Assembly: GCA_964016885.1 (NCBI GenBank)
Contig: OZ024743.1
Coordinates: 266,786,001-266,850,000, forward strand
Length of the DNA: 64,000 nucleotides
From: Eledone cirrhosa
Lineage: Eukaryota
Direction of reading: 5' to 3'
Shown: positions 683-52,608 of the stretch, piece after piece
Layout: each line of letters starts with the position of its first letter
Position numbering within the stretch: the first letter of the stretch is position 1
The notes under the pieces: model-generated
Database searches by the model: none
The model's input: only the letters and a program-made list of their open reading frames with translations
Told to the model about the DNA's origin: nothing
Position numbers and translations under genes: made by a program

Positions 683-748
683 TATTTTATCTGATGAATG
701 CGCACTATAATTTGCCTTGGTGACCCTCGAAATATGTATAATAAAATA
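683..748 (+). ncRNA. Type I hammerhead ribozyme with degenerate stem II, in a probable PLE 3' UTR
   Basis: tattttat-CTGATGA-...-GAAA-tatgta-TA-ataaaata. The 8-bp stem I is perfect and identical to that of the HHR at 40916; stem II pairs poorly. Confidence 0.6.
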
Positions 749-1009
749 AATATGGTTTTATAAATATAATTTCCATTTGTTAATATATTGTATATTTACT
801 CCACTAATTTGTTGAGTGCTTTATATCAGTTGTAACAATGTTTAAGCTTGTTGAATCCCAACAAATTAAATATAACCTCTGCAGAAATTGTCAAATTTAC
901 AAATTAAAATTACATCATCAATAATAATATTAATTATAAAGATATTGGCTAATTTCATCGTCTTATTATACACAATATATATATAATATATATATATATA
1001 TAGATATAT

Positions 1010-2720
1010 AATCTGCTCGATCTGGGCCGTATCAGTGATGTTGACCCCTAACACACTATATCAGACATAACGTTTGGCGCCCCTGGTGACTTAGCGGCAA
1101 TAAACGAAATTAAACACAATTCAGCAGTAGGCTCCGACACGTTCCCTGCTTGTGTCCTGAAGGTGTGTCGACACCAACTTGCTAATCTGTGGAGGAACTC
1201 ACTGGACACTGGCTATATTCCTGAAAACTTTCTGTCCCAGTCCGTTGTCCCAGTCTTCAAATAGGGAAATGAATCCCTTGCAGTGAACTACCGTCCGATC
1301 TCACTCACCTCTCATATTATTAGGGTATTTGAGAGGGTGGTGAGATCACGAATAACCCACTTCCTTGAAAGCAACGGCCTGCTGAACTCCAACTAACATG
1401 GGTTCCGTAATGGAAGGGACTGCCTAACGCAGCTCCTGCATCACTTTGATGATGTTTTGAGAGCTTTGGGAGAGGGATCCAACACTGATGTTCTCTACCT
1501 TAATTTCAGCAAGGCCTTCAACAGGGTTGATCATAAGATTCTACTGAAAAAACTATCCAATGTTGGTGTCTCTGGAAGGTTACTACAGTGCATCAAATGT
1601 TTCCCGACAGGCAGAACCCAGCTTGTTGTAGTCGAATGAGTAAAATCAAGCCCTGCCAAAGTCAGCAGTGGCGTCCAACAAGGCACTGTGTTGGGCCCAC
1701 TTCTTTTCATCATCTACATTAATGACATTACTGACATCATCAAACACAGCAACATCAGAATCTTCGCAGAAAATTCCAAGCTCCAAAGGGTCATCAATGA
1801 GGTGGGTGACCGGACTTGCCTTCTGTCAAACATACTGGCTGTTATCCAATGGGCAGAAATGAATAATATGCTGTTGAATGAGGATAAGTTTGAACTAATC
1901 CACTTTGGAAAAAAGGATGCCCTGTTACTACCAAACTCTCTTCCTTCGGGTGAAACTCTAGTGGCATCCAATAACATCAGAGACCTGGGAGTAATTGTGG
2001 ACAACAATATAAGCTGGGCCACTCATATAAACAGCAAAGTTGATATGGCCCGCAGAATGTGTTCCTGGATTCTCAGAACTTTCCAGTCGAGAGATATCCA
2101 CACTGTTATCCTTCTCTTCTCCACTTTTGCCCGACCCCACCTTGAATACTGGTGTCCACTGTGGTTACCCCGCACGAAACAAAGTATCATGAAAGTTGAA
2201 GCACCCCAAAGGTCAATTACAAAAACGATAGATGGCATGACAGGCCTTGACTATTGGAGTCGATTAGAAAAGCTTAAACTTATTCTCTTCAACCTCGCCG
2301 TGAGCGCTACATTATCTGTATGATGTGGAAAATATTCCATCAGCTTAGCCCAAATGATGTTGGCATCACCTTTAGTGTACACTTGGGCCCCGTGCTATCC
2401 GCCCACGACAAAAATCTCACTCGCATCACATAACAACAATACGGCACAATTATTTCACCTCAATTGGTCCTGCACTCTTTAACATTACACCAAAACACAT
2501 CAAAGCACAGACAGACCCCATCAAGTTCACTAAGTCTTTGGATAAATTCCTTCAAGAAATCCTGGATAACCCTCCTACACCCGGATATGCCTCCGTAAAC
2601 AATAACTCTCTGCTAGAGTGTGCCATGGTGCCCAAACACTGATTTGTAAGACTTAACCAGGTGGTGCTATTAAGTTAGACATGGCCTGGGCCAATACTGG
2701 CCGAAACCTATCAAAGTTAA
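1010..2720 (+). mobile_element. 5'-truncated, decayed CR1/L2-group LINE (RT pseudogene plus 3' UTR)
   Basis: Broken RT motifs NYRPISLTS, HGFR, YLNFSKAFNRVDH, SGVQQGTVLGPLLF, IFAENSK (YADD mutated), RDLGV and RPHLEY, with stops and frameshifts. Ends next to (TA)n. Confidence 0.9.
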
Positions 2721-3397
2721 TTTATATATATTAAATATATATATATATTATATATATATATATATTATATCATATAATATTATTCTTTCTTTCCCATTTC
2801 TAAAACATGTTCAACATCACATTATCTTCTCTCCAACATTTTACACCAATACAAATTCTCCCTTTGATAATGCATAAAATGCTGACACCGGTAATAAACA
2901 ATTATTAAATATATAAATAAATAAATAAATAAATTAACTAATGCCTTAACACTTCACACAAAGCAAAATATATTCTAACCCAGAAAAAAGAGAGAAAAGG
3001 AAAAAATAAAAGGAAAAACATATTTTTCTTCCTAATAATTGTCTTTTTCTCCCTATTTATATTATATACATATATATATTCCAACTCGTGTGCTCCTTCT
3101 CCACATTTTATAAATATATATATGTACGTGAATAGACACACAGAGACGCAAGCACAAACACAAGTTCCAAATACTCTCAATTTAAAACATTAAATTTAGC
3201 AATAACGGTGACAGTAACAGCATTTATAACCTCAATAATAACAACACATACAATAATAAGAACAACCTGTCAACAAAAATGAAATGAAAATAATCATATT
3301 TACTATCAATGCAATGTAACACAAAAAATGGTAAAATAAGAATAGAGAGTAATACACAAGGGAGAATAGATATGCACAATGAGAGGCTGTGATATAA

Positions 3398-3540
3398 TGT
3401 ACTACTACTACTACTACTACTACTACTACTACTACTACTACTACTATTACTGCTGCTGCTGCTGATGATGATGATGATGATAATGATGATGATGATGATT
3501 ATGATGATGATGATGATGATGATGATTATAATAATAATGA
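3398..3540. repeat. Compound trinucleotide microsatellite (TAC/TGC/GAT/AAT)
   Basis: Seen directly in the sequence. Confidence 0.95.
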
Positions 3541-3544
3541 CTTA

Positions 3545-4195
3545 ACTAATAGCCGGATTCGTTCTACACGTGATAGCAGGTGATCGACATAAGCCCACAA
3601 ATCAGCAATGCTCGGACACTTAATGTATGAGTGTAGCATGGTTTCGTCGCCACGTGTGCATCGAAAACAGGGCCGATTGACGGCACAACCATGCCTATAG
3701 ATTTTATCTCGATCTGACAAAGCTCCTCCTTATACAATGCCAGACCAGGGATTTCTGGAATTATCCATGGCCAGCTGTACAGAAAGAGTGGCTGGTTGAT
3801 TTTCGTCGATACCAAGAGTTTACCCAAGAGGGTCGTAGTTGTTATCTGATAGGAACGCTCTACAGAATGACAAGGTGGAGTTCCCACCGATTGTAATGCC
3901 CGATTGGTAGAGAGCTGTGAGCGCATGAAGACATTCCAGTTTGCAAGCTCTTCTCGGTCACCGCTTGTCAAGGAGACGAGCTGGAGAAACAAGTGTCTAG
4001 TTAGAGGTGATCCCACCTGTTTACTGATACGGAGAAGATGGAGATGCTGTAACCTCAGTGCATGTTTGCGCATCATTAGCCACTGCATTCCCAGACCTCC
4101 ACTCAGCGGGTGTTGACAGAAGATGGAACAGCTGGCCATGGGAACGCATCCCGTCCACAAGAAGTGAAAGAGCAGACGCTCTAACGATACTTCGA
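3545..4195 (-). mobile_element. Tx1/L1-clade LINE ORF2 C-terminal fragment
   Basis: LERLLFHFLW...PLSGGLGM followed by the zf-RVT-type CFRC...DETMLHSYIKC...LW in an adjacent frame. Confidence 0.75.
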
Positions 4196-50209: not shown

Positions 50210-51400
50210 AAGAAAGCTATAAGAAGCACTACCGGCCAATACAAGTGAAAAACTCAGAAGAATATGGAGTATACTTACATTAAAGCATGGGAAAATTATC
50301 AAGTAAAAATTATCAAGTAAAAATTGCTAAGGAAGTGAATAACATTTTGAACCATATTACAAATATAGTACAATGCAAAAACTAAAGCTAAACACAAGTG
50401 GTGATATAAAGCGAGAATTACAGTACTATATATAATATAATATAATATAATTTAATATAATATAATATAATTGATAATGATAATAATAATATTAAAAGGC
50501 CCAATATACATATATATATATATACATATGTACACACATATATATATATATATCAATACACATATCCATCGTACAAACACAAACTAACACTTATTAAGAG
50601 TTTAAATATAAATAAATAAAAATAAAAATAAAAATTAAAATTAAAATATAATACATATATTATTTACAGTATAAAATGATAAAGAAATGAGTAAAAGTAA
50701 ACATATAATATATAATATACTATATAATTATATAATTAATAATCTCCGGTCAATTTGCACAAACAATATAAATATTACAATAACACTATAATAACAATAT
50801 TATAATATATTGGCATATAACTTAACAAATCATATAAAGTTACACACGGGGTGAGAAAAAAAATATCATACAGAACTAAATTGTGTTGAAAAAATTGTGC
50901 TGGAAAAATATCTATACCGTTGTAAGAAAACAGACGGAGGTCAAGTGTTTATACAATTGGTATAAATAAATATTATCTAAACATTACAAAAATTATAAAA
51001 ATATAAACATATTACAGAATTTACAAAATTTAACATAAGGGTACATCTTATGGATGGGTTCGGATACACCTATGTGATTTCTACGATTCTTATGCTTTCT
51101 ACTCCCATTCATGGCCATATTATGGGATATTATGTTATTATTATTATATGTAAGCGGAGACTTTCTAAGGTTACTATTATTATAATGTATTTTACCAGAG
51201 TAACCGGAGTTAGCTAGGGCATTATTATAGTACTCTGCATGTGCATTAAATATTCTTATGTCCTTAGAGAGTGTGGAAATTCTATTAGATACACCATTAA
51301 TTATAGAGCTTATCATAGATTTGGGGTAGTTAGAATTGGGACTAACATAAGAGAGTATTTCATTAGGCTTATGGAGTTAAGTTATATGCCAATATATTAT

Positions 51401-51587
51401 AATTGTTTCTACTTTAGGCACAAGGCCAACAATTACCCAGTTCATTACTGGTACTTTATTTTATCGACCCCGTAAGGATGAAAGGCAAAGTCAACCTCGG
51501 CGGGATTTGAACTCAGATCGTAAAGGGACGTAACTATGCTGGAAAGCATGGCGTCCGACCCTCTACCGATACTGCCAATCCACCGCC
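51401..51587 (-). mobile_element. tRNA-derived SINE, copy 5, with TSD aatatattataat
   Basis: A and B boxes and Meta-like core; direct repeat on both sides. Confidence 0.92.
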
Positions 51588-52185
51588 AATATATTATAAT
51601 ATTGTTATTATAGTGTTATTGTAATATTTATATTGTTTGTGCAAATTGACCGGAGATTATTAATTATATAATTATATAGTATATTATATATTATATGTTT
51701 ACTTTTACTCATTTCTTTATCATTTTATACTGTAAATAATATATGTATTATATTTTAATTTTTATTTTTATTTTTATTTTTATTTATTTATATTTAAACT
51801 CTTAATAAGTGTTAGTTTGTGTTTGTATTGATGGATATATGTATTGATATATATATATATATGTGCACATATGTATATATATATATATGTATATTGGGCC
51901 TTTTAATATTATTATTATTATCATTATCAATTATATTATATTATATTATATTATATTATATTATATATAGTACTGTAATTCTCGCTTTATATCACCACTT
52001 GTGTTTAGCTTTAGTTTTTGCATTGTACTATATTTGTAATATGGTTCAAAATGTTATTCACTTCCTTAGCAATTTTTACTTGATAATTTTTACTTGATAA
52101 TTTTCCTATGCTTTAATGTATGTATACTCCATATTCTTCTGAGTTTTGGCTTGTATTGGCCGATAGTGCTTCTTATAGCTTTCTT

Positions 52186-52223
52186 GCCCTGATGAGTCCT
52201 TAATAGGACGAAACATTGTTGGC
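52186..52223 (+). ncRNA. Minimal type I hammerhead ribozyme
   Basis: gcc-CTGATGA-gtcct-taat-aggac-GAAA-cattg-TT-ggc; canonical core. Confidence 0.85.
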
Positions 52224-52389
52224 TAATAAAGACTTTTGATGTATTGAAGGCTTCTTTGGTTTATTTTCATAATTCTTCGGCTCTGTTTAATTACATTGAG
52301 CTATACCTTTACTGTCATTTCTATAATATGAAGAGGGTGTTTAACTCCAACACACTCTAGTATTTTAATTCTTATATATATAATATATA

Positions 52390-52608
52390 GTAATAATAAT
52401 AAATTTGAAGACTGAAATCCAAAGAGGGCTCGATAAGGATAGATATATATCAAATATATAAGAAACGTAGTGCAAATATTTATTAAAATAACAGATTAAA
52501 GTTTAAGCAAAGAATCGCTGCTTTCGCCCTTAACGGAGTTTCAGAAGATCCCGTTATGGGTGAAAGCAGCGATTCTTTGCTTAAACTTTAATCTGTTATT
52601 TTAATAAA
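52390..52608. mobile_element. Mini inverted pair of PLE 3' termini; HHR-like motif at 52537-52587 (plus strand)
   Basis: Same family as 4996, 14830 and 21030. Confidence 0.8.

Follow-up and report, generated by a model that had tools for sequence, protein, structure and literature searches.

The 64-kb window analysed here (64,000 nucleotides (nt) of contig OZ024743.1, positions 266,786,001 to 266,850,000 of the forward strand, assembly GCA_964016885.1) comes from the 3.0-Gb genome assembly of Eledone cirrhosa, has 25–41% G+C and is rich in (TA)n. Its open reading frame (ORF) remnants include six of Hydra-like and one of Neptune-like Penelope-like elements (PLEs); as the initial annotation had proposed, PLE-type hammerhead motifs sit in (TA)n in the same window as decayed genes for reverse transcriptase (RT) and GIY-YIG endonuclease (EN) (Table 1). 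That annotation took all motifs to be type I; the most unusual candidate, however, is absent from its list. In eight modules of the window, the hammerhead core is permuted non-circularly to S-G-C (the block with the cleavage site comes first, that with GAAA second and that with CUGAUGA last; hereafter SGC), and these modules belong to a repeat with units of 497–530 nt and without an RT or nuclease gene.

In the repeats at 18573–19754, 25253–26377 and 36734–37066 and near 6100, GAAA lies 23 nt ahead of CUGAUGA. A comparison of subfamilies indicates that a single upstream segment, on either side of one A or C, is the pairing partner of both the strand 3′ of GAAA and the strand 5′ of CUGAUGA, an arrangement that we read as an S-G-C hammerhead. 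At a score of at least 24, an SGC descriptor gave seven hits in the window (0.03 in shuffled sequence); in a 790-kb genome sample, composed of 79 evenly spaced 10-kb stretches, it gave nine against 0.4, three of the nine lying in one simple repeat. A covariance model built from SGC copies found eight matches in the window. An alignment of 16 copies, selected so as to cover the subfamilies, has 96.3% of its cells paired, compared to 25–49% in slid controls, and two-sided changes occur in 18 of 35 pairs, a number reached by none of 500 shuffles: stem I shows such changes in five of six pairs, stem III shows them in two of five, and three of the four accessory helices covary as well. Conservation among 91 distinct copies, collected by BLAST with no ribozyme filter, is 99% at the 11 core positions and 80% at the others; at the cleavage site, 89 of these copies have A or C and one has G. 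Energy folding alone returns the nested helices as the minimum-energy fold of the monomer. Two other readings of the module were rejected: a type II hammerhead (GAAA-hairpin-CUGAUGA) does not rise above shuffles and its U16.1 is unconserved across subfamilies, and a C/D small nucleolar RNA reached only chance-level Rfam scores (E about 9). We regard it as very probable that the SGC element is a real conserved structure with a hammerhead core; that it is an active ribozyme is a less secure but still favoured prediction.

The predicted fold has several features of its own (positions follow the standard hammerhead numbering). A kink-turn consists of a 3-nt bulge followed by tandem G-A and A-G pairs, placed between two helices; stem III of the SGC module appears to run through such a kink-turn-like loop, a 3-nt bulge with G-A pairs, into a further helix (helix c). 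Over the 91 copies, the corresponding positions are G1b in 90, A2b in 87 and A1n in 90; at position 2n, 50 copies have G and 40 have U. Stem II is probably reduced to a single covarying pair (10.1–11.1), beyond which a four-way junction would follow: the strand after CUGAUGA would pair upstream as helix a, the strand before GAAA would pair upstream as helix b, and a hairpin would lie between them. Stem I, helix b and helix c would meet at a three-way junction, and the I–II helix as described for this class is not seen in the fold.

Insertions of the SGC repeat at 30 genomic loci share a fixed 3′ end and variable 5′ truncation and include head-to-tail copies of more than one unit, many loci holding a single module, and a TA run lies 60–100 nt past the last core in 27 of the 30. 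Many copies in the genome are 98–99% identical. Six exact-core hits in 790 kb give an estimate of ~23,000 copies (8,000–50,000) for all SGC families together, and the genome holds at least two other multi-copy SGC families. Within the window, the tandem at 18573..19754 is inserted in the TA tract of the Hydra-like element at 16963..20639, and its incidental 132-aa (amino acid) frame matches no Pfam family.

The SGC elements of the window have no GIY-YIG or RT gene, and decayed elements with GIY-YIG N-terminal to RT, the mark of Naiad PLEs, occur elsewhere in the genome. Among 30 loci retrieved by the RT C-terminus, four have, on the same strand and past the RT end in the downstream direction, a shared SGC-order motif with a compensatory U3–A8 core; six more share part of the motif-bearing 3′ region. 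No open frame exceeds 223 aa among the 150 matches listed, a homologue search with the Naiad EN remnant returned no matches, and a short pattern of a published octopus Naiad tail has no match in the genome. According to Craig et al. 2021 (PMC8557442), Naiads have cores and half cores but no hammerhead of the canonical kind. We inspected by eye 21 named consensus ends from the supplement of that paper: nine fit the order S-G-C (Bfor, 3_Chem, Amil, Aacu, Anas, 2_Movir, Obim, Ovul and Esco) and three the order C-S-G (1-, 2- and 3_Nbra), and six more excerpts with no name assigned also fit by eye.

Table 1. Features of the 64-kb window (positions within the window; predicted cuts are given as the nucleotide after which cleavage would occur)
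Feature	Position	Strand	Details
Tandem SGC element, no RT/EN gene	18573..19754	+	527/530-nt units, 2.2 copies, in a (TA)n tract; modules 18573-18644 (5′-truncated), 19059-19171, 19589-19701; predicted cuts after 18582, 19109, 19639
Second tandem SGC element	25253..26377	+	497-nt units; modules 25253-25323 (truncated), 25708-25820 (one stem I mismatch), 26205-26317
5′-truncated SGC copy	36734..37066	-	module 36795-36907; predicted cut after 36857
SGC module, diverged subfamily	6091..6204	+	~74% identity with the 18573 family; predicted cut after 6142
Decayed Hydra-clade PLE	21030..23951	-	RT and GIY-YIG 22165-23951; 3′ untranslated region (UTR) ends in CAGAAGA-core type I motif 21030-21080
5′-truncated relative of the 21030 Hydra family	13793..14880	+	motif 14830-14880
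Solo or degenerate tails of the 21030-type Hydra family	5082-5236, 25166-25253, 43714-43929, 49943-50122, 52373-52620		
Hydra-like remnant	16963..20639	+	remnant 17310-18525; type I motif 20579-20639 (+), inverted copy 16963-17023 (-)
Hydra-like EN C-terminus and 3′ UTR	15103..16496	+	degenerate type I motif 16405-16496
Hydra-like GIY-YIG remnant	44570..46615	+	type I motif 46495-46615
Hydra-like RT fragment	50172..52223	-	fragment 51020-51376 (-); type I motif 50172-50209 (-), inverted copy 52186-52223 (+)
Neptune-like PLE remnant	30166..33865	+	remnant 31539-32605; inverted flank; 3′ hammerhead-like stretch ~33635-33670
591-nt tandem and inverted family, no long ORF	10005..12024		U3-A8 type I motifs 10080, 10672 (-), 11691 (+); broken 11100
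544-nt tandem and inverted family, no long ORF	12185..13796		type I motifs 12374 (-), 12900, 13444 (+)
Diverged direct/inverted copies	37948..40603		minimal type I motifs 38184, 39493 (-), 38722, 40180 (+)
Type I motif of the largest cluster	683..748	+	together with 40727 (-), 40916 (+), 46495 (+)
Type I motif with near-palindromic loop III	36569..36624	+	family mate 46886 (-); similar degenerate 42904 (+)
Further type I families	37586, 44249	-, +	37586 has a CCGAUGA core
Dispersed repeat resembling a short interspersed element (SINE)	4204-4426, 37190-37445, 45338-45566, 48269-48438, 51392-51620, 56453-56662		

The type I motifs surrounding the SGC repeats are real. The core tested was CUGANGA, GAAA and UH with three stems in the order C-G-S. 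A strict descriptor, written prior to motif inspection, gave five hits in the window against 0.025 per shuffle; a relaxed one, tuned after inspection and counting a motif as strong at a score of at least 22, gave 26 against 0.8 ± 0.9 (30 shuffles), and the comparison with shuffled sequence that had been proposed for these motifs favours them under both descriptors. Twenty-four of the 28 positions listed initially were recovered, 21 at a score of at least 22 and three at 15–20 (16403, 40180 and 42904). At the remaining four, an inversion cuts off the 5′ part of stem I (5106), the core has two changes (5154), stem I is broken (11100), or GCAA stands where GAAA is expected (33635). Besides the eight permuted SGC modules, the list had omitted the type I motifs at 16963–17023 (−), 20579–20639 (+) and 46495–46615 (+). 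The strong motifs form ten multi-member sequence families and one singleton, and the 16403 motif is similar to an eleventh. The single type I set tested for covariation (18 motifs from families related to 38722) has two-sided changes in nine of 11 pairs, matched by none of 500 shuffles. In the suggested Rfam search there were no matches at gathering threshold across the window, and in a narrow Rfam scan Hammerhead_1 reached ~24.6–24.7 bits, against a cut-off of 34, at 50168–50212 and 52183–52227. Descriptor scans of the window for type III, CSG and GCS orders gave nothing convincing above shuffles, and microRNA matches in the window were rejected as TA-rich hairpin noise.

The motifs at 14830, 16403, 20579, 21030, 46495 and 50172 each lie 0.8–2.1 kb downstream of a Hydra-clade ORF remnant on the same strand; at least six motifs are therefore tails of 5′-truncated autonomous elements and do not mark non-autonomous RNAs of their own, as had been proposed. 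Many intact ORFs occur in the genome for both PLE types, of 713 aa in the Hydra-type and 784 aa in the Neptune-like family. [quoted passage not shown] In the Hydra family with motifs at 14830, 21030 and 52535 of the window, 12 of 13 clustered copies have the core CAGAAGA (U4 to A), and in three of four intact-ORF loci read this motif stands at both ends of the element, its 3′ copy being followed by (TA)n. The Neptune-like stretch at 33635–33670 combines U3–A8 with GCAA replacing GAAA, fixed in the copies read, including two more genomic loci, and relatives of the degenerate 16405–16496 motif also have a U3–A8 core. Both the CAGAAGA (U4A) and the GCAA core differ from the hammerhead consensus and may be weak or inactive. 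Hydra-type hammerheads in pseudo-long terminal repeats (pseudo-LTRs), as well as (TA)n targeting, are already published in kind.

A retrozyme-like tandem anatomy is clear only in the 591-nt (10080), 544-nt (12374) and 497–530-nt SGC families; at 38185–40180, the copies are diverged direct and inverted repeats. The longest ATG frames in the 591-, 544-, 530- and 497-nt units encode 75–127 aa, and copies of the 591-nt unit are nearly identical between chromosomes. The 591- and 544-nt families fit the published description of non-LTR retrozymes and may yield RNA circles.

The window also contains inverted-repeat elements flanked by (TA)n with only one or no hammerhead detected (43022–43497, 37542–37968, and 42181–42544 with 47193–47527), a decayed RT fragment of the long interspersed element type between TA runs (1011–2720; weak RVT_1), a Tc1/mariner-like transposase remnant (53294–53930 (−); weak HTH_Tnp_Tc3_2) and the SINE-like repeat, of ~200 nt, in six copies of 77–90% identity.

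The motif load extends over the whole genome. The 79-stretch sample holds 145 non-overlapping motifs against 9.7 in shuffled sequence, a net 171 per Mb (bootstrap 127–218), which extrapolates to ~0.5 million type I motifs per genome with the relaxed descriptor; an exact core with firmer stems gives 84 against 0 and ~0.3 million. The window has 25 non-overlapping motifs and the adjoining 200 kb, sampled separately, has 47; relative to the raw genome mean, the window is enriched ~2.1-fold (P about 0.02 by bootstrap). In total, 217 motifs fall into 27 multi-member clusters and 34 singletons. The association with (TA)n was borne out and is polar: (TA)5 occurs within 200 nt on the 3′ side in 74% of 122 family motifs of the genome sample; the corresponding fraction for the 5′ side is 35%, and random places give 20%. 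Loop III is perfectly palindromic in 60 of these 122, and type I motifs with a palindromic stem III probably work as dimers. The largest count that we found in print is 126,247 motifs in the 28-Gb axolotl genome; 0.3–0.5 million exceeds it, with descriptors that differ between the counts. Elsewhere in the genome, ~555-nt units form a tandem array within a type I family that is abundant (17 hits) and has no copy in the window, and a 43-nt satellite array was caught by a pattern search.

The initial annotation had combined its observations into a model in which about 30 motifs form a local hotspot of separate circular RNAs, each of them non-autonomous. In favour of this model, two type I families are tandem, young and without long ORFs, and several families have no PLE ORF within 2.5 kb upstream in the sample (for example, 0 of 14 and 0 of 17). 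Against it, motif density is genome-wide, six motifs of the window form the tails of Hydra ORF remnants, and intact ORFs are flanked by the CAGAAGA motif in three of four loci read; as a whole, the model is very improbable. The feature that it flagged is real, but genome-wide and largely known in kind: we read the window as a typical section of a genome full of PLE 3′ ends in (TA)n, and the type I motifs appear to be ordinary pseudo-LTR hammerheads. For the SGC repeats, the reading that we prefer, with a probability of roughly 0.65, is that they are a young family without RT or nuclease gene whose RNA would fold as an SGC hammerhead, likely derived from a Naiad tail and likely self-cleaving, in this PLE-saturated genome.

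Several observations weigh against that reading. Direct stem II is 1 bp or less in 106 of 108 distinct copies, unlike in validated SGC ribozymes; helix a shows no two-sided changes and helix b one, and the two helices only modestly exceed controls with shuffled upstream sequence; folding z-scores are weak (−1.1 and −1.8); the copies are related, mostly from three subfamilies, and in the 91 copies conservation reaches 97% or more outside the core as well, in 28 of 86 columns; and self-cleavage is a prediction from sequence. As to the proposed origin, the Naiad motif of this genome has a different periphery from the SGC family of the window, no element joining a Naiad ORF to the SGC module of the window was found in the genome, and nine of the 21 published ends, all judged by eye, show neither order clearly (1-, 2- and 4_Chem, 1_Movir, CGi, Sglo, Olur and Mcor, with Ppla ambiguous). 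In the supplement of PMC8557442, the ends of Naiad-4_Chem and Naiad-1_Movir have a twister-like appearance and another conserved motif is common to three bivalve Naiad ends, so that Naiads may swap ribozyme classes.

The shortness of stem II leaves some room for the view, unlikely in our judgement, that the module is a structured, non-catalytic descendant of a hammerhead that serves as a recognition or priming signal for a PLE enzyme, with its stem II strands locked in other helices, and the finding that one of nine predicted retrozyme dimers cleaved (bioRxiv 10.64898/2026.07.22.740005) points the same way. Yet every catalytic position is kept, the cleavage-site base avoids G, the 10.1–11.1 pair covaries, and the Naiad version has the U3–A8 swap known from PLE hammerhead cores. 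Covariation cannot separate pairing in cis from pairing between units, SGC copies are often tandem, and dimeric hammerheads are, in the published accounts consulted, the rule in PLEs; the ribozyme could thus form across units, the S and C blocks of one pairing with the G block of the next in a circular, type III-like order. Such pairing would need a reach of 500 nt although a 100-nt local fold exists, many copies have a single module, and the nested helices are the minimum-energy fold of the monomer; we consider this arrangement quite improbable.

If the SGC RNA does cleave itself, a read-through transcript could be cut at successive ribozymes into 497–530-nt monomers, the monomers could circularise, and a PLE reverse transcriptase primed at a (TA)n nick could copy the circle more than once around. 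Given that the Naiads of this genome are decayed, the mobilising enzyme is more likely to be borrowed from intact Hydra or Neptune elements than to be a Naiad protein. Extended to the clade, our proposal is that Naiads have non-circularly permuted hammerheads, SGC in ctenophores, cnidarians and cephalopods and CSG in nematodes, and that the SGC form seen here self-cleaves as a four-block design beyond the six permutations considered, in which a strand from upstream would splint stem II within a four-way junction and a natural kink-turn would bend stem III back on itself, and that it gave rise to retrozymes whose copies in an animal genome number tens of thousands; we hold this broader proposal to be only slightly more probable than its negation. 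Cleavage would give non-circularly permuted hammerheads a home in animal genomes and a biological role, would close the reported absence of a PLE-type ribozyme in Naiads, and would mean that a hammerhead core can accommodate both an interruption next to A9 and, in stem III, a kink-turn through which proteins might exert control. As standard descriptors and Rfam miss motifs of the SGC type, animal ribozyme counts are probably too low.

We compared the elements with published ones (PMC10085705, PMC8557442, PMC4209133, PMC7229834 and bioRxiv 10.64898/2026.07.22.740005); a literature search, with most subscription journals outside its coverage, found no paper tying permuted hammerheads to Naiads or animal genomes. 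The motif set of the 713-aa ORF, to which the window remnants are homologous, matches the published marks of the Hydra clade (PMC8557442), whose members, including Hydra-1_Obim, share a ~710-aa ORF, (TA)n and a type I tail motif; in the clade table, which includes a Hydra element of octopus, stem II likewise has U-U at its base, and the cleavage sites are UA/UU. The copy load here is far above the descriptions found in that source, and the fixed U4-to-A core (CAGAAGA) is not in its table. The tandem families resemble non-LTR retrozymes (PMC7229834; bioRxiv 10.64898/2026.07.22.740005) in being PLE-derived, non-coding units of less than 45% G+C with one hammerhead each, and differ in unit length (497–591 nt compared to a typical 150–450 nt); the type I fold that defines these retrozymes is present in the 591- and 544-nt families and absent from the SGC family.

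With the Naiad clade as described in PMC8557442, the SGC elements share insertion in (TA)n, tandem and inverted copies and a 3′ ‘HHR half core’; they differ in being young and without an RT/EN gene, whereas the Naiad genes of this genome are decayed. Eckert et al. 2023 (PMC10085705) validated ribozymes of the types SGC and CSG and, in the main account, place none in any known organism's genome, with the exception of one bacterial GCS candidate, although the supplements may list hosts. With type-SGC of that paper (HRIMA-1 and a variant) our modules share the order S-G-C, the complete core of CUGANGA, GAAA and NUH, a short linker from stem I to the G block, and the crossing of stems I and III. 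The published type-SGC is metatranscriptomic and has a direct stem II and a I–II helix; in E. cirrhosa, stem II has 0–1 bp and would be joined by an upstream segment in a four-way junction, stem III would continue past a kink-turn-like loop, and the modules reside in a genomic retroelement whose copies we estimate at 8,000–50,000. By this comparison, the SGC-order hammerhead of an animal retroelement would be a new variant of an arrangement reported previously, in the literature available to us, only outside known organisms.

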